Below, one piece after another: positions 1-57,646 of a DNA stretch of 64,000 nucleotides (positions are counted from its first letter, which is position 1; each line of letters starts with the position of its first letter). Source of the stretch: a virus. Location: the IMG/VR virus record IMGVR_UViG_3300036767_000362, one strand, 5' to 3'. Made by a program: the position numbers and the translations under genes. The notes beneath the pieces are model-generated. The model was not told the DNA's origin and made no database searches. It saw only the letters and a program-made list of their open reading frames with translations.

Positions 1-179
1 ACTTCTGTTCTTAAATCTTCAACATCTGCACCAAACCCTTTAATCATATTTACAAATTTGTCAGTGCATAGCATTGCATATAGTAAATGCTCTACAGTTA
101 CGTATTCATGCTTTAACTTTTTAGCATCAACAACTGCTTTATCAAAAACTAATTGTAACTCTTGACTAGGCTCTACCAT
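1..179 (-). CDS. clpA: ATP-dependent Clp protease ATPase subunit ClpA, N-terminus (runs off the window)
   Basis: Manual translation MVEPSQELQLVFDKAVVDAKKLKHEYVTVEHLLYAML matches the Clp N-domain H-E-Y-x-T-x-E-H-L-L signature; the start overlaps the end of def. Confidence 0.8.
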   Translation of the reverse strand, partial: MVEPSQELQLVFDKAVVDAKKLKHEYVTVEHLLYAMLCTDKFVNMIKGFGADVEDLRTE

Positions 180-687
180 GTTCTAATTCCTTTATTGCTT
201 TTTTTTGCTTCTTTAAAGCCATATCTAATCTTAATTTACTGACTCTTGCAGGATTAACGAACGTTATACCCTCCAAATGGTCGTATTCATGCAAAAAACA
301 TCTTGCATCATAACCACTAAACTCCATTATACACTCTTTTTGTTTGCTGTCAAGGAATTTAACGGTAACCTTTTCTGGTCTTCTAACTTTAATCCATAAT
401 TTTGGAAAACTAAGACAACCTTCTACATCTTCAATTTTATTAAGACTTATTTGCTCAATTGTAGGGTCAATTATAGCAAGAGGTTTAGTAATTCCTTTAG
501 TTCTTTTTGGAAATATTGTAAAAACTCTTGCATCTAAGCTAACTTGATTTGCCGCCAGGCCGATACCATCATTATTCATCATAATAGATATCATTTCTTG
601 TTCAATTTTTTCAGAATCCAAATTTTCCCAGTCAAAAGGTTTAACTTTTTTGTCTAAAAATTCATTTGGATATCTAATTAGTTCCAT
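166..687 (-). CDS. def: peptide deformylase
   Basis: All three motifs present: GIGLAANQ, EGCLS, HEYDH. Confidence 0.95.
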   Translation of the reverse strand: MELIRYPNEFLDKKVKPFDWENLDSEKIEQEMISIMMNNDGIGLAANQVSLDARVFTIFPKRTKGITKPLAIIDPTIEQISLNKIEDVEGCLSFPKLWIKVRRPEKVTVKFLDSKQKECIMEFSGYDARCFLHEYDHLEGITFVNPARVSKLRLDMALKKQKKAIKELEHGRA

Positions 688-1522
688 ATTTTATTCTCTG
701 TAAAAGTTTTAACATTTCCGGGTCGTTTATGTTAGGTATTTCAGCTTGTACTGTCATATAGATATTACCTCTGCTTCTTCCGTGCAATTTAGGTAATCCT
801 TGCTCATTAATACTTAATACTGTACCTGGTTGACACCCTTTAGGAATTGTAATAGCTAAATTTTTGTTATCTATTGTTCTTATTTCTTTTTTAGTTCCTA
901 ATAATAAATCAAATACACTTACTTTTTCTATACAATGTAAATTTGCTCCGTCTCTATGCCATTTTCTATGAGGAGCTACTCTAATTCTAACCATTAAATC
1001 TCCTCTATGTACTCCTGCTATTGAATTATCACCAAGAGCGGCAAATTTTATTGTAGTATTGGATTCTATTCCAGCAGGTAATTCAAGATTTACACTTTGT
1101 TGTCTTCCATTAGACAATCTATAAGTTGCAATTAAAGATTTACCACTCATTACATCTTCTAAATCTATTGTAGTTTGAATTGATATATCTTTATTTCGCA
1201 TTCTTTGTCTTCGTCCAAAAGGACTAGGCCCTCCTCCAAAGAAATCATTTATTACATCACCTATATCGTGAGGGAATCCACCAAAGTCGCCACTAGTATA
1301 GGTTCTCGTATAACCTTGTTGTCCAGTTTCGCCGAACTGGTCATACGTAGTTCTTTTTTGAGGATCTTTAAGGGTGTCGTATGCTTCGTTAATTTTCTGA
1401 AACTGTTGTTCGTCTCCACCTCTGTCTGGGTGGTGTTTCATAGCTTTCTTTTTGTATGCTTTTTTTAAATCGTCTACAGAAGCCCCTCGTTTAACACCTA
1501 ATATATCATAGTAATCTGCCAT
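674..1522 (-). CDS. DnaJ/CbpA-type co-chaperone without zinc finger
   Basis: J-domain DYYDILGV...HPDRGG, G/F linker and C-terminal domain; likely start is MADYY at 1522. Confidence 0.9.
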   Translation of the reverse strand: MADYYDILGVKRGASVDDLKKAYKKKAMKHHPDRGGDEQQFQKINEAYDTLKDPQKRTTYDQFGETGQQGYTRTYTSGDFGGFPHDIGDVINDFFGGGPSPFGRRQRMRNKDISIQTTIDLEDVMSGKSLIATYRLSNGRQQSVNLELPAGIESNTTIKFAALGDNSIAGVHRGDLMVRIRVAPHRKWHRDGANLHCIEKVSVFDLLLGTKKEIRTIDNKNLAITIPKGCQPGTVLSINEQGLPKLHGRSRGNIYMTVQAEIPNINDPEMLKLLQRIKYGTN

Positions 1523-1598
1523 AATAGTAATATAACAACTTTTTACCAAAAAGTCAAGTTGTAAATGTATTTAAGTGGATTTTGATATTGTTTTTTGA

Positions 1599-8023: not shown

Positions 8024-8419
8024 TTATTCTAATAGGTCGCCGCCGGGGCTATATTTTAATCTGGCTTGATACCAATCTTTTGGTTTGTAATTTCCAGTCA
8101 TCATTACTGCTTTGGCTTCTACAATTCGGAGTACCGTTTCTTTTTCGTTTTCATCTGCAAAACTGAAACCTCTTGACCATCGTCCGTGTTCGACTAAGAT
8201 CCAGTCTCCTTTTTTGTATGTGTCTTTATTTTTGTGACCTTTAGAAACTACTTTACACCATCTAGGTTTAATACCTCTAGTGTGTCCATCGTCACTTCCG
8301 ATAATAAGTCCACCTTTGGTTTTTGATTCGCCAAATTCCATGTCAGAGACTAAAACTCTGTCATGGATAGGTGTTATATTGCCTTTAATGAAATATTTTA
8401 ATTTTGGAGGGTCGAACAT
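8024..8419 (-). CDS. GroES-like co-chaperonin
   Basis: PIHDRVLV...KTKGGLII...V..G....K.GD.ILV. Confidence 0.8.
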   Translation of the reverse strand: MFDPPKLKYFIKGNITPIHDRVLVSDMEFGESKTKGGLIIGSDDGHTRGIKPRWCKVVSKGHKNKDTYKKGDWILVEHGRWSRGFSFADENEKETVLRIVEAKAVMMTGNYKPKDWYQARLKYSPGGDLLE

Positions 8420-8802: not shown

Positions 8803-9324
8803 TTAGCGAAGGAACTCTCGCCAGTTTAGATTATATTGTAATGAGTCTATTTTATGGACACCTAATAAGAACAATACGTAACTAGCAACCGAACTTCCAC
8901 GTCCTACACCCCATATAATATTGTTTTCCTTCATAAAATTGACAAGATAATGTAAAAATCTTAATAGGTTTGTAAAACCCATTTCTTTAAATGCTTCTAA
9001 TTCTTCATTTACTCTATTAATGCTATTTTGGTCACCTGGACATATGCTACGAACATATGTTTCTATATCGAAACTCTTGTAACTGTTTGGCATAAACCAT
9101 TCATTTTGTAAAAGTTTATCAAAAGATTTTAAATCAATGTCTAATGATTTATAAAATTTAAGTTGTTGACCTGTACCAGTTAATTCAACGGATTTATTAA
9201 ATTTTTTTGTTTCTTCGTTGTCATCTGCTAATACATTAAACAACAAATCTTCCTTACCTTTATAGATAAGGTCCATTAAGTCATCGGTACCATATTTTGG
9301 TAACCCTAATTTATCAATTTGCAT
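8803..9324 (-). CDS. DNA polymerase III alpha (DnaE)-like fragment, split polymerase subunit
   Basis: RVNEEL..F...GF..LL....LV......I.WGVGRGSSVASYVLFLLGVH.ID motif; only 173 aa. Confidence 0.8.
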   Translation of the reverse strand: MQIDKLGLPKYGTDDLMDLIYKGKEDLLFNVLADDNEETKKFNKSVELTGTGQQLKFYKSLDIDLKSFDKLLQNEWFMPNSYKSFDIETYVRSICPGDQNSINRVNEELEAFKEMGFTNLLRFLHYLVNFMKENNIIWGVGRGSSVASYVLFLLGVHKIDSLQYNLNWREFLR

Positions 9325-14043: not shown

Positions 14044-15810
14044 TTAACCATAATTCCAAGGTTTACGATTAGACATCGGTATATAAGCAACATTACCTTT
14101 ACTACCAAATAGAGACCATTGATTAGTATAATCATTATCTAATCCACTATTAGCATCTGAAGAATAAAAGCTATCTTGAATAGCATTTTCGGTCATAAAA
14201 CTTACAACTTGTTTAGGCGTCCAATCGGGGTGCATTTGGTATACTAAAGCCGCCATTCCTGCCGCCTGAGGACTAGCCATAGATGTTCCTTGCTTTCTCT
14301 CTTGCCAATAATTGTTATTATGGTAGTATGGTCCGCCTGCACTGCCGTCAGAACAACTTATAATCATTTCACCTGCCGTCCAAATATTAACTCCCGGACC
14401 TTGAGAACTAAAAGGACTTTTTCTGTCCCTAGTAGAACTATGAGGATTGTAATTAATTGACCCAACTACAAAAGCCTGACCTGCCTTATTAAAATTCGGA
14501 TTAGGACTGCCTCCTCTATTATAATAATACTTATTTCCAGAGACAGGGCTTCCTCCCCAAGCTGACCAATTGTATTGGTCGGGAAGATAGCCGTTACTAT
14601 CTGCTCCAAGAGTAATGTAATTGTCCCAATCTGCTCCACTAGGAAGATCCCATTTTTGACCGTCATTTCCTGAAGCAATACATAAAACAATACCATCATC
14701 AATCATTTCTTCGACCTCGGCATTGTTAGCCACAGTATTAATACCTGCATAAGGTTCAGAGTTCATTGCGTCAGACCAACCATAAAAACTTAAACCTTTA
14801 TTTCTCATATCACTGTTGCTATTAATAGAATATGAATTTCCACGATAACTTCCACCGGTTATTGGGAAACCCAAAAGGTTAAAGCCAACATCATAACCAT
14901 AAAATTTGACGCCAGAACCCCAACTCATATTAACTACAGTTGGTCTATGTGTACCGGTCCATAGAGCATGATTTGGATCATTTTTATTATTATGCCAACC
15001 TCTCATTATGTCCATACCATCATAACCGCCAATAGAACCAGATCCAAACATCCTCATACTGTAAATTTTAGAATTTTTTGCCCAACCAAAGTTTTTGCCT
15101 GCAATTGTTCCCATAACATGAGATCCATGAGAACCATCGGTTAATGAATAAAAGTCATTAGCTTGAGTTCCAGATATTCCAGATACCGCATACCAATCAT
15201 GCATATCATATCTACTAACTCCATTTGAATCTTCCCATTCAGGATGTCCCATTATAACTCCAGAATCTTGAGCCACAACATCAACACCTGTACCATCTAA
15301 AACATAATCATATGAACCACCAGGATCTGAAGTACTTGATCCATAATTATTAGTTTTAGAACAATGTCTTAATAATCCCCAATTATCTCTTCTATAATTG
15401 CTATTATGGCTTGAACTTTTTTCAAATCCTCCATCATGATATTTTCGTTGTATTATAAACATTGGATCTACCGGTGCTTCAACGTCTTCGATTCTTGGAT
15501 CATTTTTTAATTTTTTTATTTCGTTAGAACTTAAATTATAATGAGTATTTCTTTTATTAGTAGATTTTAACTTAATAACATCAACAGTTCTATCTGGTAT
15601 AATATTTGAATCTACACTTGGATCGGCAGTAGTATCTCTAGTAAGTTCATTATGAAGTACTTCCCAGTTAACACCTTTTTTTACTGTAACAATAACTTCA
15701 AAATTATCATCTGGACTTGATGATCGCATTTTTGCTTTCATCTCTTCTATTTTATCTTCGTACTCTTTACTAGGTTGTTTAGGCGGAGCACCTGGATCGG
15801 GCATTGACAT
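14044..15810 (-). CDS. subtilisin-like S8 serine peptidase
   Basis: Catalytic triad in VVAQDSG, HGSHVMG and GTSMASP; oxyanion-hole Asn in ASGND. Confidence 0.9.
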   Translation of the reverse strand: MSMPDPGAPPKQPSKEYEDKIEEMKAKMRSSSPDDNFEVIVTVKKGVNWEVLHNELTRDTTADPSVDSNIIPDRTVDVIKLKSTNKRNTHYNLSSNEIKKLKNDPRIEDVEAPVDPMFIIQRKYHDGGFEKSSSHNSNYRRDNWGLLRHCSKTNNYGSSTSDPGGSYDYVLDGTGVDVVAQDSGVIMGHPEWEDSNGVSRYDMHDWYAVSGISGTQANDFYSLTDGSHGSHVMGTIAGKNFGWAKNSKIYSMRMFGSGSIGGYDGMDIMRGWHNNKNDPNHALWTGTHRPTVVNMSWGSGVKFYGYDVGFNLLGFPITGGSYRGNSYSINSNSDMRNKGLSFYGWSDAMNSEPYAGINTVANNAEVEEMIDDGIVLCIASGNDGQKWDLPSGADWDNYITLGADSNGYLPDQYNWSAWGGSPVSGNKYYYNRGGSPNPNFNKAGQAFVVGSINYNPHSSTRDRKSPFSSQGPGVNIWTAGEMIISCSDGSAGGPYYHNNNYWQERKQGTSMASPQAAGMAALVYQMHPDWTPKQVVSFMTENAIQDSFYSSDANSGLDNDYTNQWSLFGSKGNVAYIPMSNRKPWNYG

Positions 15811-18735: not shown

Positions 18736-21700
18736 TATACTCTACCTACCACCATTTCTATTACACCAACACTTGGGTTCATATGATCTTCTAATGCTTT
18801 ACCTAATACTGTTCCAACTCTAGGATCAGGACTAGATGAAGCGTGTCCTCTAACACTACTTGTTACTAACATATCACCTTTTCTACACATTCCAGTAACT
18901 TTAACTTTAACTCTACCTTGTAAAGCAATTGGTGTTCCACCTTCTTGTGCTGAATTCATTAAGTATGCTGGTTTGTCTGAAACAACTCCAGCTACTCTTG
19001 TATCTTCAGATAATTGAGTAGTTGTAACTTCTTTATCTCCGCCGAATATAACAACTGTACCTATTTCATAATTGTCATCTGCTGTATAATTTTCCGCCAA
19101 GTCAGCATATAGAGATCTTGTTGCTGTTCCATCAAATATATTTGCGTACATTGTATTATATCTTCTACTGGAATCACCAATATTAAATGTCATATTGGCA
19201 TCACCAGGAACAATACCTTGTGTTGTAACTAATAATGGAACTGATCCATCAGCTACAATTGCCACTCTTCCTTCAGCACTATCATCAGTGTCTGACACGT
19301 ATGCACTACTTTGACCTATAGCTATTCCTGTTGGATTGTTTGCTTTTCCTGTAGATTCAATAAATTTAGTGTATATATGATCCACTGCAAGAGCGCCATC
19401 ACTAGCACCTTGAGTATTACTTGCTGATGCATCTGCACCACCTATATCTAATCTTCTACCAGGAAGTGAAGTAACTGTATTAGCCTGTGTACTTCCTATA
19501 CCAGTAGCAAAATCTATTCCACCAGGAGTTGTTATATTAAGTGTAGATGCGGAACTATCTAATGCAAGATTACCATCTATTTTTAATCCTGCTAAATCCG
19601 TTACACCAGTTGTATCTGTTTTAACTATACTATTAACTTCTCCTGTTTTTGTAACGTTAGTAACTTTGTAAACACCAGCACTTTCTTTTATAAGTGTTTC
19701 ACCGGGATCACTAGCGGCATCTAATTCTGTAGTAAAGTCAGCATCAACTACTGCTCCACCTTGAGAAATTATATCTGAAAATGTAACTGCATTTACGTCA
19801 CCAGTACCTGAATCAGTTCGTCCATATGCTTGGTATTGATCTAATTGAGGTAAATCAGCAAAGTCTATACCAGAAGAAGATAATTCAACCCAACCATTAG
19901 TAACTGTAAAGTCACCTGAATCAAAACTTGCAAGTCCTAAATCTGCTTGACTAATTCCTGAAGCATTTGCTCTTGAAGTTGCGGCATTCATATTCAACTT
20001 ACTTTGAGCTATTGCGGCATCTGATTTAACATCTGCATTAATAATTACATTTGATGCAATATTAAATGTAAGTTCAGTTTGTGTTGCAGTTCTATTTGCA
20101 GTCATTTCTACATCTGAAGCTGTAACAACTGCATTACCCATTTCATTTATTGCAGTATCTATAACTTGAGCAGTAACTCCACCACCAGTATCAATTGTAT
20201 CTGCTGTAGTAAATTGTGTAGGACTAGATGTCCATGTGTAAGTAATTCTTGTGGCATTAACCGCTCCAGGTAATACAAGAACTTCTACATCTACAATTGT
20301 TCCTGTTGCACCAGTTACTGATCCTGTAAAAGTATCACTAACTGCAAAATTTCCACCAACTGCAGGTACAGTATACATTCTGTATTTGCCATTGAATATT
20401 AAAAGTTGTGCTTCAGCTAAATTTCCAATATTAACGTTTCTAATATTTTCTATTTGATCTGTTTCGTATATAATATTATCTACATAACTTTTTGTAGTTG
20501 CATCTTGATCCGAAGACGGATCTGATAAACCTGTTAATTTAAATCCACCAACTGCCATGTGATTTGTAAATGGAATAGAACCGTCTCTAGCAATAGTACC
20601 TGCTCCAATTGGATTTCCTACTAAAGTAGTTGCATGGTCAAAACCTAATCTTCTATTAACATATTCTCTAACAGCTGATTCTGTTGGTACACTATCAGTA
20701 GAATTGTCTACCATTGAACCATCTGTACTAAATTCTGCTACAACAACACCTCTTTTAAATCCTATACCATCTAAATTACTAATTGCAATTGCCGCCGCAA
20801 ATGAAACTGTTCCTGTTGCTTGATCAACTGTGAAATATTTTCCTACTCTAAAGAAACCATCTTGGTCAGTACTAACATAGTAAACTCTACCTTTTAATTT
20901 TTCAACAGTTTCATTAGTTTGAGATGATGCCGTTGTTGCATCACCATAAATTACATTAGGGAAGTTTGTAGTATTAAAACCACCTGTTCCAATATCTAAG
21001 AAATCATGATTTGATGCTCTTGCTGTTGAAACAAATACAGTAATTGAAGCTGGTTCTGTAGCAGACAATCCAACTCTAAATGTAGGAGAACCTCCATTTG
21101 TTGCCACATATCCAGTCATTGCACTGTGAATTCCTGCGCCTATTGGAGTAGGATTAATATTTGATACATCTGTAATTTCTACTGTAGCATATGTTGTTCT
21201 ATCTACGTAATTTGCAACTTTGTGAGTTTTACCATCCCAACCAAATGTCATATCGCCATTGTTTAATCTTGCAATATCTGCCGCTTCTGGAATTGTGTTA
21301 ATTGCAATTACAACGTCACCAATTGTGTGACCCATTGTTGTTCCTGAACCAGCATGAGTATTATTTTGTGCTTCAGTTTCATTAAGAGACATCTTAACAT
21401 AATCGTAAACGTCATCAAAAGCAATTAAGGCAGTATTAGCCGGTAAAGCCACACCAACTGGATTTGATGTTGAATAAGAAATACTTCTGTAAGTTATAGT
21501 ACTTGTTTCATCAAATACTACAGCAGTTGTTGGTTTAGAAGGTGCTGTATTATTAACATCACTAAAGACGAATTGAGAATTTGCTCTAATTGTTACTGTT
21601 TGATCATCTGCAAGAGCGGCTTTTAATCCTGTTGTAGATGTTTCGTTTTTACCACTTGTTCCTAAATTAATTTTGTAAATTGTTGAATCTCTAGTACTTG

Positions 21701-40761: not shown

Positions 40762-40821
40762 TCTTTTTCTCCTTTTTATGATGTTCCCAAGTTAATTCTT
40801 TTAATTTGCTCATTCTTTTTC
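40724..40821. repeat. 46-bp direct duplication spanning the clpS stop and hemO start
   Basis: ttatgatgttcccaagttaattcttttaatttgctcattctttttc at 40724-40769 and 40776-40821. Confidence 0.9.
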
Positions 40822-41115
40822 AATCTTTATTTGAAGTGGATATCCCAAACTTCTACTTTCGTTTGTTGCCTCCATACCTTTTTGTTCTGCTATTTCGTAT
40901 GTATAAATTCCAACAATTATAGAACCCTCTTTATGAATTCTCAAAGTAAGATCACGAGCCGTTTCGGGTGTGTGTTTAAATATTTTGATTAATATATCAA
41001 TTACAAATTCCATAGGAGTTACATTATCATTCAAGAATATAACTTTGTAATTTTCAGGTTCTTTAACAACCTGTTTTATTTTTTCATCTATTTTTACTTC
41101 TATGTCAGTACTCAT
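40810..41115 (-). CDS. clpS: ATP-dependent Clp protease adaptor ClpS
   Basis: YKVIFLNDNVTPMEFVI...IHKEG...YTYEIAE.K....GYPL. Confidence 0.92.
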   Translation of the reverse strand: MSTDIEVKIDEKIKQVVKEPENYKVIFLNDNVTPMEFVIDILIKIFKHTPETARDLTLRIHKEGSIIVGIYTYEIAEQKGMEATNESRSLGYPLQIKIEKE

Positions 41116-41367: not shown

Positions 41368-41817
41368 TTATTTAATGTCTATTTTTTTAGCCTTTTTATT
41401 CTCTGGAACTATTCTTTCCAAAGAAACTCTTAAAAGACCATCTTTAAGTTCAGCACCTTTTACTTCTACGTCATCCGCAATTGTAAAAGATTTAGAAAAA
41501 TATCTTTGAGATATTCCTCTATGCACAACTCCATCTTCTGAATTGCTTGTTCTAGCTTCTTTGATAGATTTGATTGTAAGCATATTATCTTTATACTCTA
41601 TATCAATATCTTTCTTACTGAAGCCAGCAAGAGCAACTTCAACATCGTGGGTGTTTTCACCTGTTTTCACAATATTGTAAGGTGGGTAGTTGATACTGCC
41701 GGAACCATTAAAGATTTGATCACCGTCCATCATTCTTTCGAAATGATCGAACACGTTGTCAAATCCAATAGTTACGGGTCTTAGTTGATTAAAAATTGAT
41801 AGGGCTTTATTTGTCAT
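41368..41817 (-). CDS. small heat-shock protein Hsp20 (IbpA-like)
   Basis: IGFD..F, YPPYNI, ALAGF, HRGIS.R.F, A.L.DGLL. Confidence 0.95.
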   Translation of the reverse strand: MTNKALSIFNQLRPVTIGFDNVFDHFERMMDGDQIFNGSGSINYPPYNIVKTGENTHDVEVALAGFSKKDIDIEYKDNMLTIKSIKEARTSNSEDGVVHRGISQRYFSKSFTIADDVEVKGAELKDGLLRVSLERIVPENKKAKKIDIK

Positions 41818-48114: not shown

Positions 48115-48187
48115 ACGTATATATTTAGAAAGTTTTTAGTAAAAGAAAAATGCTAATTTTAAAGTTATAAGGTAAGTTAAAAATAAA

Positions 48188-48209
48188 CATAGGGGCCGAA
48201 GCCCCTATG
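48188..48209 (-). terminator. intrinsic terminator of the tmRNA gene
   Basis: CATAGGGGC-TTCG-GCCCCTATG followed by TTTATTTTT. Confidence 0.85.
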
Positions 48210-48214
48210 CTGGT

Positions 48215-48520
48215 CTATGTTCTGTTGCCGAGATTAACCTTTCTCCGAAATGGCAGTATTAAACTGCAACCAGTTCTCTGTCAGCAAAAATGCTAACTGG
48301 AACTGTCACTTCAGGTTTAAATGCTAATGCATTTATAAATTGGACGTTACTTCGTGCCTACTAGATAGACTCCATTTGTCTTTACATTCCGGTCGATCCT
48401 AGTTCACCCCCGTTAAACACTTAAACCTTAAAATGTTTCACGTGGAAGAATTTGGTGGAGGTGGTCGGTACTGCCCCGACGTCCCTGAAATTTATTACCC
48501 AAACTTCAACGTCTACAGTA
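48215..48520 (-). ncRNA. ssrA: circularly permuted two-piece tmRNA
   Basis: Acceptor piece comes first, with T-arm GTCGG-GGCAGTA-CCGAC and CACCTCC-A-CCA ending at 48453. Coding piece starts GGGGGTGAACTAGGATCGAC at 48411. The 7-bp acceptor stem has G3:U70; the tag frame is 48330-48259. Outer ends are approximate. Confidence 0.9.
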
Positions 48521-48597
48521 ATATTTATAACATCTTTTTATTGATATGTCAAAGACATCGATGGTACAGTCTGGTATGCTGTTTTATGTTGGGAGGA

Positions 48598-48807
48598 TTA
48601 TTCTACAATGCGTTTAAGATTTCCTGCTACTTGTCGTCCTCGAAATTCTACCATCTCATACTCCATTAAGTCGCCGTCATGGACGTCGCTTAAATTTGAA
48701 GCCTTTAAAGCAGATACGTGTAAAAACACGTCTTTACCTTCTTGATCTGGTGTGATGAATCCGAAACCTTTAGCGGAATTAAACCATTTAATTTTGCCTG
48801 TTGCCAT
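48598..48807 (-). CDS. cold-shock protein
   Basis: GKIKWFNSAKGFGFITPD...DVFLHVS. Confidence 0.95.
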   Translation of the reverse strand: MATGKIKWFNSAKGFGFITPDQEGKDVFLHVSALKASNLSDVHDGDLMEYEMVEFRGRQVAGNLKRIVE

Positions 48808-50517: not shown

Positions 50518-50937
50518 TTAATTATCCTTTACTTCTGGAATAGGAATTGCGCCTATGCCTTCATCGTGAAGTTTTTTAACTTCGTTATCAGTTGCAGTAC
50601 CGAAAATGTGATCGTCTCTTTCTCCTTTAGATGCTTTTCTGGCTTCCTTGGCAAAATTACGACCAACGTCTTCACAGTTCTTTGTAACCCAATTATTTAA
50701 ATTTTTTAATGCTTGTCTACTATTAAAAAAGACTTTGTTCTTTTTATCTTTCTTTGGCGATTCTTTAGTTTTAGTTTTGACAATACTAGGAGCCATTAGT
50801 GCTCTCCTAATATTAGGATCATCACACATAGGACAAAGTAGTAAATTTTTCTTTTTTTGATCTAGGTATGCAGTTTCAGAATCAAACCACCCTTCGAATT
50901 TATGGTCGTGTGTGCATAGTAAATTATATTTCGCCAT
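50518..50937 (-). CDS. DUF1178 family protein
   Basis: Y.L.C...H.FEGWF, CP.C, ALMAP, EDVG..FA.EARK, I.G.A. Confidence 0.85.
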   Translation of the reverse strand: MAKYNLLCTHDHKFEGWFDSETAYLDQKKKNLLLCPMCDDPNIRRALMAPSIVKTKTKESPKKDKKNKVFFNSRQALKNLNNWVTKNCEDVGRNFAKEARKASKGERDDHIFGTATDNEVKKLHDEGIGAIPIPEVKDN

Positions 50938-51118
50938 CGTACTTAATTCTCCAATCACTTTTGGTATTGTTCTTTTTGTCCATATAATCTAGTATAAGAT
51001 TGATTGCGAGAATTGTCAAGCCGAATCCAATAATCATCCAAAGTCCTTTGCCTTCTTCCCAATTGGTTAAAAGAAACCAAAGTACTTCCATGCCGTCCAT
51101 ATTTTGAAATTTATCCAT
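50924..51118 (-). CDS. small membrane protein
   Basis: Single TM segment. Confidence 0.45.
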   Translation of the reverse strand: MDKFQNMDGMEVLWFLLTNWEEGKGLWMIIGFGLTILAINLILDYMDKKNNTKSDWRIKYDGEI

Positions 51119-57208: not shown

Positions 57209-57646
57209 TTATTTTTCGTTTTCTTGATTTTCTGTAGTCAAAGAATCTATTTTATCTAATTCCTCAGTTCCAGTAAGATTATCGATAGCCTCAATTGGTT
57301 CTAATACATCTTGCATTTGTTCCAATACTGTTTGTTCTGGAAATTGATCTGAAGGAACAAAAGGTGAATAACCTTGGTCACTTGCTGATTCATCATCTTC
57401 ACCAACAATTGATTTTACTTCTGGTACATAGTGCTTTAGCATATCTTCTACACTTTGTTGTAAAGTCATTTTAGACATTGCACAACCACTACAGGCTCCT
57501 GCTAATTGTAATTTTACAAATCCTGTTTCTTCGTCAAAGTCCAAATAATTAATGAAGCCATTATGTTGGGCAACTGAAGGTGCTACTTTTTCATCCAAAA
57601 TAGTCTTGATATCTTTAACTATTTCTTCTTTTGTTCTATCTGTCAT
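57209..57646 (-). CDS. NifU/NfuA-like Fe-S carrier
   Basis: V.P.VA.HNG.I, L.GACSGC..S..TL; acidic extension. Confidence 0.85.
   Translation of the reverse strand: MTDRTKEEIVKDIKTILDEKVAPSVAQHNGFINYLDFDEETGFVKLQLAGACSGCAMSKMTLQQSVEDMLKHYVPEVKSIVGEDDESASDQGYSPFVPSDQFPEQTVLEQMQDVLEPIEAIDNLTGTEELDKIDSLTTENQENEK

Follow-up and report, generated by a model that had tools for sequence, protein, structure and literature searches.

In a published survey, two-piece tmRNAs account for 53 of 133 distinct phage tmRNAs, nearly all of these 53 being from aquatic phages (PMC9004378). Two-piece ssrA genes were published for Methylophilales phage Melnitz, Pelagibacter phage Mosig and pelagimyophage-like contigs (Buchholz et al. 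2022, PMC9004378), i.e. phage two-piece tmRNAs of marine myophages are already known. The locus described here resembles these marine myophage ssrA genes in being phage-borne, permuted, of the alpha-type and present in AT-rich marine T4-like phages. With the alphaproteobacterial two-piece tmRNA (Caulobacter ssrA, RF01849) it shares the gene order, the GGCNGUA T-loop, the G3:U70 pair, the P2 helices and the resume context AUAAAU-GCA. It departs from both in its tag, which comprises 23 codons and in the analysed DNA ends in -LVAV. The original prediction for this DNA, made from the letters alone, had taken bacterial tags usually to end in -AA; this is too strict, a hydrophobic C-terminal residue, not strictly Ala-Ala, being given as the usual case for tmRNA tags (PMC4131195). 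Here we establish the tmRNA gene, its architecture, its tag frame, the peptide-level selection acting on the tag and the distribution of the family, and we discuss which protease might read the tag.

Genomic setting of the locus

The window, i.e. the whole 64-kb stretch of DNA that was analysed (64,000 nucleotides of IMG/VR record IMGVR_UViG_3300036767_000362), derives from an uncultured large marine phage. Its G+C content is 30-36% and nearly every gene, including the tmRNA gene, is located on the minus strand. We identified T4-type replication and nucleotide genes (clamp-loader subunit, NrdA, NrdB, Thy1 and DNA ligase), and for NrdA and NrdB the nearest named relative is Pelagibacter phage HTVC008M with 75% nucleotide identity. 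Genes for translation and protein quality control are abundant in the window, i.e. the ClpA 5' end, deformylase, DnaJ, the Cpn10-like protein, ClpS, Hsp20, the cold-shock protein and the tmRNA. The protein-coding ones among them are:

1-179 (codons 179-3), minus strand: 5' end of clpA, 59 codons of the Clp_N region, the gene running past the window edge
166-687, minus strand: peptide deformylase
674-1549, minus strand: DnaJ
8024-8419, minus strand: Cpn10-like (GroES-like) protein
40810-41115, minus strand: ClpS, 101 aa (Pfam ClpS, E 2.8e-27)
41368-41817, minus strand: Hsp20
48598-48807, minus strand: cold-shock protein, directly upstream of the tmRNA

The minus strand furthermore encodes a subtilase-family protease of 588 aa (14044-15810), a DUF1178 protein (50518-50958), a NifU-like protein (57209-57646) and a short ORF of 173 aa (8803-9324) matching part only of the DNA polymerase III alpha NTPase domain. 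SmpB was not found among the window ORFs of at least 120 aa scanned with Pfam, a scan covering all but a few of them, and Rfam gave no match to a glutamine riboswitch in the window.

Architecture of the permuted tmRNA

Both relevant covariance models recognise the locus, in line with the original prediction of a phage-borne two-piece tmRNA of alphaproteobacterial style. Rfam RF04321 (tmRNA_permuted) matches 48515-48259 on the minus strand with 74.2 bits, compared to a gathering score of 47, over the complete model (1-213), and RF01849 (alpha_tmRNA) matches 48503-48375 on the minus strand with 81.3 bits, compared to a gathering score of 50, this second match being partial (positions 69-184 of the 355-position model). 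The order is permuted: T-arm, 3' acceptor strand and CCA come first, and the 5' acceptor strand and the tag frame follow downstream of them. In the direction of the RNA the elements are:

48522-48529, minus strand: TATAAATA box resembling a T4-type late promoter, read from the sequence, 6 nt upstream of the RNA's first helix
48453-48516, minus strand: acceptor piece with the 5' strands of the P2-type helices, T-arm, 3' acceptor strand, discriminator A and CCA (Rfam alignments, covariation)
48480-48464, minus strand: T-arm GUCGG/GGCAGUA/CCGAC, the loop GGCAGUA being 48475-48469
48463-48457, minus strand: 3' acceptor strand CACCUCC, U70 being 48459
48456, minus strand: discriminator A (A73)
48455-48453, minus strand: encoded CCA
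48412-48452, minus strand: intervening segment of 41 nt between CCA and G1, forming a hairpin (covariation and minimum-energy fold)
48186-48411, minus strand: coding piece with the 5' acceptor strand, D-loop analogue, P2-type 3' strands, tag frame, downstream helices and terminator
48411-48405, minus strand: 5' acceptor strand GGGGGUG, G1 being 48411 and G3 48409
48259-48330, minus strand: tag frame, AUAAAU followed by the resume codon GCA (48330-48328), 23 codons encoding ALAFKPEVTVPVSIFADRELVAV and the stop codon UAA (48261-48259)
48253-48267, minus strand: hairpin GCAGU-UUAAU-ACUGC, whose loop holds the stop codon and which covers the last two tag codons (minimum-energy fold)
48179-48211, minus strand: intrinsic terminator whose stem of 11 pairs is closed by a UUCG loop (48211-48186) and precedes a U-run, the stem covarying in the family

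The registers of GGGGGUG and CACCUCC place G3 (48409) opposite U70 (48459), and the alanine identity set is present, i.e. a 7-bp acceptor stem, G3:U70 and A73. The T-loop GGCAGUA fits the alpha-type GGCNGUA, the RF01849 consensus being GGCgGUA. T-loop, G3:U70, CCA, the upstream TATAAATA element and the UUCG terminator had all been predicted, and each can be read from the sequence. The 338-nt precursor folds with z = -4.6 compared to shuffled sequences, and its minimum-energy fold contains the T-arm, the acceptor stem, the spacer hairpin, the stop-codon hairpin and the terminator. For the PK1 region upstream of the resume codon the short hairpin of the Rfam model aligns poorly, and RNAalifold as used below cannot predict pseudoknots.

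The box and its spacing would suit a late promoter of the T4 type from which transcription starts near 48516, making the box the putative promoter of the gene. By analogy to known two-piece tmRNAs, the spacer 48412-48452 is expected to be excised on maturation. Contigs of three RNA libraries span the tmRNA gene, a weak hint at transcription given that DNA carry-over is possible. In one RNA library the coverage is confined to 48190-48515, as seen from contigs that do not reveal strand, ends or level, and one RNA-library contig of 603 nt spans the tmRNA together with the upstream cold-shock gene, which may reflect read-through or DNA carry-over.

A family of relatives with fixed synteny and covarying helices

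We searched for relatives by two scans. The first one, applied to IMG/VR with the alpha-type T-arm plus acceptor end, yielded at least 120 viral contigs, and among those listed almost all tags are of the ANDNFA....ALAA kind with 9-17 codons and an Ala-Ala end. The second one used a back-translated FKPEVTVP pattern in IMG/VR combined with a matching metagenome scan and yielded 101 phage or metagenome loci with a 23-codon tag of the window's family. The proposed alignment of tags from related phages finds the long tag in 101 loci of the same neighbourhood: all 101 share the gene order NT5C-orf59-CSD (cold-shock)-tmRNA-orf84-glucosaminidase, the flanking proteins being 40-80% identical to their counterparts in the window. 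In one metagenome locus, L224 (contig Ga0222716_10001631), the second half of the tag is divergent (ANAFKPEVTVPAGFFAGEVQMAA) while the synteny is unchanged.

Window 48181-48530 was aligned with 34 of the loci, resulting in 35 distinct sequences (alignment A1) for which helices were predicted by RNAalifold. Of the 77 predicted pairs, 20 are retained despite changes on both sides, and the covarying elements comprise the P2-type helices, the T-arm, the spacer hairpin, a 3' helix and the terminator. Three P2-type helices join the two pieces (alignment columns 28-33/176-181, 40-44/168-172 and 54-60/153-159), with two-sided changes in up to 15 sequences per pair. The acceptor stem including the G:U pair is invariant in all 35 sequences, and so are the core T.TAAATA and its distance to UGUAGAC. 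The pairs of the spacer hairpin (columns 103-111/124-132) are retained through two-sided changes in 7-20 sequences per pair. Given this strong covariation, the spacer (48412-48452) is itself under selection, perhaps as a processing signal.

Within this one tag family and synteny block we observed two kinds of tRNA-like domain (A1 columns 60-90 and 133-152). The first kind has the alpha-type T-loop GGCAGUA with the D-loop analogue G-AUAUAGGUUCGAC. The second kind, present in 10 of the 35 distinct members (L121-L125, L135, L142, L145, L163 and L169), has a standard T-loop, GGUUCGACUCC or GGUUCAACUCC, with GUACUUGGUUUCGAC. From the sequences this looks like a recombinational swap of the tRNA-like domain, perhaps tied to host changes.

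We also came across a second family of phage two-piece tmRNAs with long tags, represented by L052, L073 and L108. Their tags comprise 22-25 codons (ANTKALGFADLTVGMSELRLAA and variants), end in -RLAA and are called by ARAGORN. ClpS was not found on these three fragments, which at 22-26 kb are too short to judge.

The tag frame is under peptide-level selection

Among 18 distinct tag DNA sequences, the proposed frame shows 559 synonymous versus 420 nonsynonymous pairwise codon differences, compared to 146/897 and 92/894 for the two alternative frames. Tag codons 3-11 carry synonymous variants only, and codons 1-15 vary almost only synonymously. ARAGORN independently calls the identical frame and long tag in the Ala-Ala relatives. 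The synonymous excess in one frame and these calls show the resume codon and frame to be right and the peptide to be under selection, and the resume position moreover agrees with the Rfam consensus AUAAAU-GCA. The resume codon GCA, the 23-codon frame and the unusual length of the tag were all anticipated in the original prediction, which had named in advance a canonical -AA tag in another frame as its refutation; reading the other frames of the window's coding piece revealed no such tag. A short tag starting from an internal GCU (ADRELVAV in the window, ADAELVAA as called by ARAGORN in L121) was considered and rejected, since codons 1-15 vary almost only synonymously.

The last eleven tag residues of the relatives, SIFADAELVAA, resemble the pattern F-A-acidic...A/V-A-A of alpha-type tags. 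Based on this resemblance, the long tag looks like an alpha-type tag that has gained an insert of about 12 residues shortly behind its start. Tag position 2 is Leu in the window and Asn or Lys in the relatives.

The insert raises the possibility of a switch in protease class, according to which the hydrophobic 12-residue stretch FKPEVTVPVSIF would act as a degron for Lon or FtsH and the C-terminus would matter little, by analogy to Mycoplasma. The tag is about twice as long as the ANDNFA..ALAA tags that prevail among the other viral contigs listed, its middle is under strict peptide-level selection, and the tags of Mollicutes are recognised mainly by Lon (PMC9382460). However, the C-terminal ELVA(A/V) is strongly conserved as well and resembles the end of alpha-type tags, and it is on Clp components that the phage spends its genes, not on Lon. 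We regard such a switch as improbable.

The -LVAV end is a derived state of one sub-lineage

The original prediction was right about a tag not ending in Ala-Ala for the window and six further loci, yet this does not hold for the family: in 95 of the 101 loci the last two residues are Ala-Ala, as part of -LVAA in 94 loci and of -QMAA in the remaining one, showing that the family trait is the long tag and not the Val. The window and L150, L165, L167, L199, L223 and L245 carry the exact tag ALAFKPEVTVPVSIFADRELVAV, ending in V-A-V and lacking the C-terminal Ala-Ala of the canonical ClpXP ssrA degron. Within this sub-lineage the tmRNA is identical in 341-349 of 350 nt, the L167 tag carrying two synonymous changes, and the flanking proteins are 74-86% identical.

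The ends -LVAV and -LVAA differ by one GCU-to-GUU change in the last codon. The region around the stop codon reads GCC GCU UAA U ACC GGC in the relatives and GCA GUU UAA U ACU GC in the window, resulting in the replacement of a 4-pair helix GCCG/CGGC around the stop by GCAGU/ACUGC. The Ala-to-Val change hence came with compensating changes of the 3' strand within a structured element. Val is the derived state, as all other family members and the second long-tag family (L052, L073, L108) end in Ala-Ala. All sampled words of the stretch are present in 14 public DNA runs from 13 studies, these runs possibly being sources of this DNA, and one DNA contig as well as RNA-library contigs carry the same letters as the window tmRNA. 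Together with the six matching contigs, this support from runs and contigs shows the Val to be real and fixed and no sequencing error. Its identity in six contigs with flanking proteins differing by up to 26% indicates that -LVAV is not only fixed but maintained. From the alignment, Leu2 and -LVAV are read as derived states fixed in the window's sub-lineage.

Most simply, -LVAV is a tolerated change without loss of the degron, which would fit the sequences at least as well as an adaptive change; perhaps it tunes the degradation rate. In enterobacteria an -AV end results in slower yet ClpXP-dependent degradation, and in Salmonella the degradation of engineered tags ending in -AAV proceeds at an intermediate rate and requires ClpXP (PMC11003136).

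A decaying gene, or an RNA serving rescue only, would be a further way to understand the Val: the RNA would free ribosomes or titrate SmpB, the tag would be irrelevant and the Val would reflect relaxed constraint. For mycobacteriophage DS6A a tmRNA-like domain alone was suggested to inhibit tmRNA (PMC4131195), and the failure of ARAGORN on the -LVAV lineage, described below, would be consistent with decay. This contrasts with the strong purifying selection on the tag peptide, the -LVAV end being identical across diverged phages, the compensatory changes in the RNA helices and the near-identity of the tmRNA within the sub-lineage. We disfavour this reading and consider it highly improbable.

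Distribution of the tag and detection by ARAGORN

Scanning 185,579 bacterial and archaeal species, with one genome each, for the tag pattern yielded 13 matches, all 13 inside unrelated coding regions, the taxa being of high GC or unrelated, with neither an acceptor stem upstream nor a tmRNA context. Since no match in these species representatives has a tmRNA context, we conclude that the tag is not borrowed from a host. Using blastn against 50,697 phage records, the window RNA gave no match and the RNA of the -LVAA relative L121 gave short stretches of the tRNA-like domain only. The tag does not occur in the supplements of PMC9004378, and a literature search joining pcyX with tmRNA found nothing.

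With regard to the two kinds of search proposed for confirming the gene, the covariance models RF04321 and RF01849 detected it, whereas ARAGORN called no tmRNA in the window. ARAGORN calls the permuted tmRNA in -LVAA relatives and misses it in L167, which ends in -LVAV, so that ARAGORN-based surveys miss the -LVAV form; ARAGORN is the tool behind the published phage tmRNA survey (PMC9004378). As the program fails on L167 and likewise on ordinary tmRNA loci such as L012, its failure alone says little about the tag.

Phage clpA, clpS and clpP accompany the long tag

The original prediction invoked a ClpA of the phage itself, and the window indeed contains the first 59 codons of such a gene, while no Clp ATPase was found among the scanned complete window ORFs of at least 400 aa. 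The nearest of the virus records covered by the analysis, G001 (L258), overlaps window 1-245 with 96.7% identity and bears a complete ORF of 748 aa, the first 59 residues of which match the translation of window 179-3. This ORF comprises the Pfam domains Clp_N, AAA, AAA_lid_9, AAA_2 and ClpB_D2-small and aligns with E. coli ClpA (1ksf, E 9.5e-197) in one match that spans all 748 aa. It shows the features by which a ClpA is recognised, i.e. two AAA+ modules and a D2-small domain without the middle domain of ClpB/ClpC. The pore loops KYR and GYVG are retained, and an MGF tripeptide is present at the place of the ClpP-docking loop. The 148-kb contig of an -LVAA relative encodes a ClpA 74% identical, with KYR, GYVG and MGF loops likewise.

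ClpS is encoded in all 12 long-tag relatives of at least 30 kb compared to none of 16 contigs or genomes with a short or no called tag, these including four 93-100% complete genomes and Mosig. A ClpA-type ATPase was not found in the complete genomes of this short-tag and no-called-tag set. ClpP is present in four of five larger long-tag relatives; the 148-kb IMG/VR contig behind L157 (G004) carries two ClpP-like genes (19945-20454 and 92053-92574), the frame around one of them holding a TAA. ClpP was not found in G001, and neither SmpB, ClpP nor AAA_2 in the related fragments G002 and G003, all three being fragments with 9-14% completeness, too incomplete for these negatives to count. By these gene counts, phage ClpA, ClpS and ClpP go along with the long tag, and since they co-occur within one clade, the link represents one evolutionary event.

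The link might reflect a private pairing, in which a tag found only in phages would be read mainly by phage ClpA-ClpP with ClpS as modulator, the Val lowering recognition by host ClpX. In favour of this the clade bears ClpA, ClpS and ClpP, and both the ClpS distribution and the absence of ClpA-type genes from complete genomes of the comparison set separate long from short tags. Furthermore, the tag is absent from the 185,579 species-representative genomes, the ClpA loops KYR, GYVG and MGF are retained in both the -AA and the -AV sub-lineage, and E. coli ClpAP is able to degrade ssrA-tagged proteins, as cited within PMC8512704. On the other hand, the co-occurrence within one clade provides no independent support, the ClpX-type Ala-Ala end is retained in 95 of the 101 loci, and the Salmonella -AAV tags are degraded by ClpXP only (PMC11003136). 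Moreover, E. coli ClpS lowers the action of ClpA on ssrA tags and turns ClpAP towards N-degron substrates (PMC9382460), so that the phage ClpA, ClpP and ClpS may serve another purpose. On balance a private pairing appears unlikely, albeit a possibility worth keeping in mind.

We also considered how the two unusual positions of the tag might act. Mutational work on the E. coli tag reportedly located the contacts of ClpX at the three C-terminal residues together with the free carboxylate, and those of ClpA further in and at the tag start. Should this contact map hold, the terminal Ala-to-Val change would concern ClpX more strongly than ClpA. With Val at its end and without the usual Asn2, the tag could be read by a different protease or adaptor. 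With Val being a single derived change, -AAV tags still acting as ClpXP degrons and ClpS hindering ClpA, a rerouting of tagged chains away from ClpXP or to phage ClpA, as envisaged in the original prediction, is possible.

A model for trans-translation with a phage tag

Ordinary trans-translation with a phage-specific degron is the safest reading of the data. We consider it likely that the locus is a functional phage permuted tmRNA mediating trans-translation with a phage-specific long tag, which is most likely a Clp degron, and that -LVAV is a derived and tolerated variant thereof. This supports a model according to which the gene would be transcribed, probably from the late-promoter-like TATAAATA box, to the strong intrinsic terminator. 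The precursor would then be cut, the acceptor piece with its CCA end and the coding piece starting at G1 staying paired. Charged with alanine, the RNA would enter stalled ribosomes of the infected cell together with host SmpB. Translation would resume at GCA 48330, resulting in the addition of Ala and 23 encoded residues prior to release at UAA. The tag, as a long phage version of the alpha-type ssrA tag with a hydrophobic C-terminus, would most likely mark the chain for Clp-type proteolysis.

A more far-reaching idea is that of a self-contained rescue-and-recycle module, in which a private 24-residue tag would be read by phage ClpA-ClpP, tuned by ClpS, and not by host ClpXP, the Val end and the Asn2-to-Leu change moving it further from host ClpX and SspB. 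We hold this to be rather doubtful.

The common view takes trans-translation tags for signals of the host that are addressed to its own ClpXP. Here a worldwide phage clade keeps a private tag, which has no bacterial counterpart in the sample and is under strict peptide-level selection, in genomes that also carry ClpA, ClpS, ClpP, peptide deformylase, DnaJ, a GroES-like protein, Hsp20 and a cold-shock protein. This raises the question of whether phages take over the fate of failed translation products besides translation itself. Should the tag turn out to be one more degron for ClpXP, the family is an ordinary addition to the known phage tmRNAs. Of practical importance is the blind spot that ARAGORN does not call the -LVAV form.

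Comparison with known systems

Mosig belongs to the same Rfam families as the window (RF04321 93.6 bits), but its tag is canonical with 9 codons (GEDNFALAA, ARAGORN) compared to 23 codons in the window. The Mosig tmRNA adjoins a late-transcription accessory gene, whereas that of the window adjoins a cold-shock gene, and unlike the window's clade Mosig has no ClpS or ClpA-type gene. With alpha-type tags on other contigs (xNFA....A(L/V)AA) the relatives share a similar end, SIFADxELVAA. In contrast to the alphaproteobacterial tag, the window's family has about 12 extra residues, in the window with L at position 2 (K/N in relatives) and an AV end, and some members bear the standard GGUUCGACUCC T-loop instead of the alphaproteobacterial one.

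The C-terminal Ala-Val is shared with the engineered AAV/ASV ssrA variants (Andersen-type unstable GFP tags); these are 11-residue E. coli tags, and carrying their behaviour over to the window's tag and its host is an inference. The Lon-directed tags of Mycoplasma and those of the mycobacteriophage Bxz1 type are, like the window's tag, long and not ending in Leu-Ala-Ala (PMC9382460, PMC4131195), and as in the window the Bxz1 tmRNA is the phage's own (PMC4131195). Unlike the window's tmRNA, those of Mycoplasma and the Bxz1 type are one-piece with unrelated tag sequences, and protease specificity was measured for Mycoplasma only. The present analysis adds the size of the family with its fixed synteny, the frame test, the derived and compensated -LVAV end, the blindness of ARAGORN to it, the occurrence of two tRNA-like domain types among members of a single tag family and the link of the long tag to ClpA, ClpS and ClpP.
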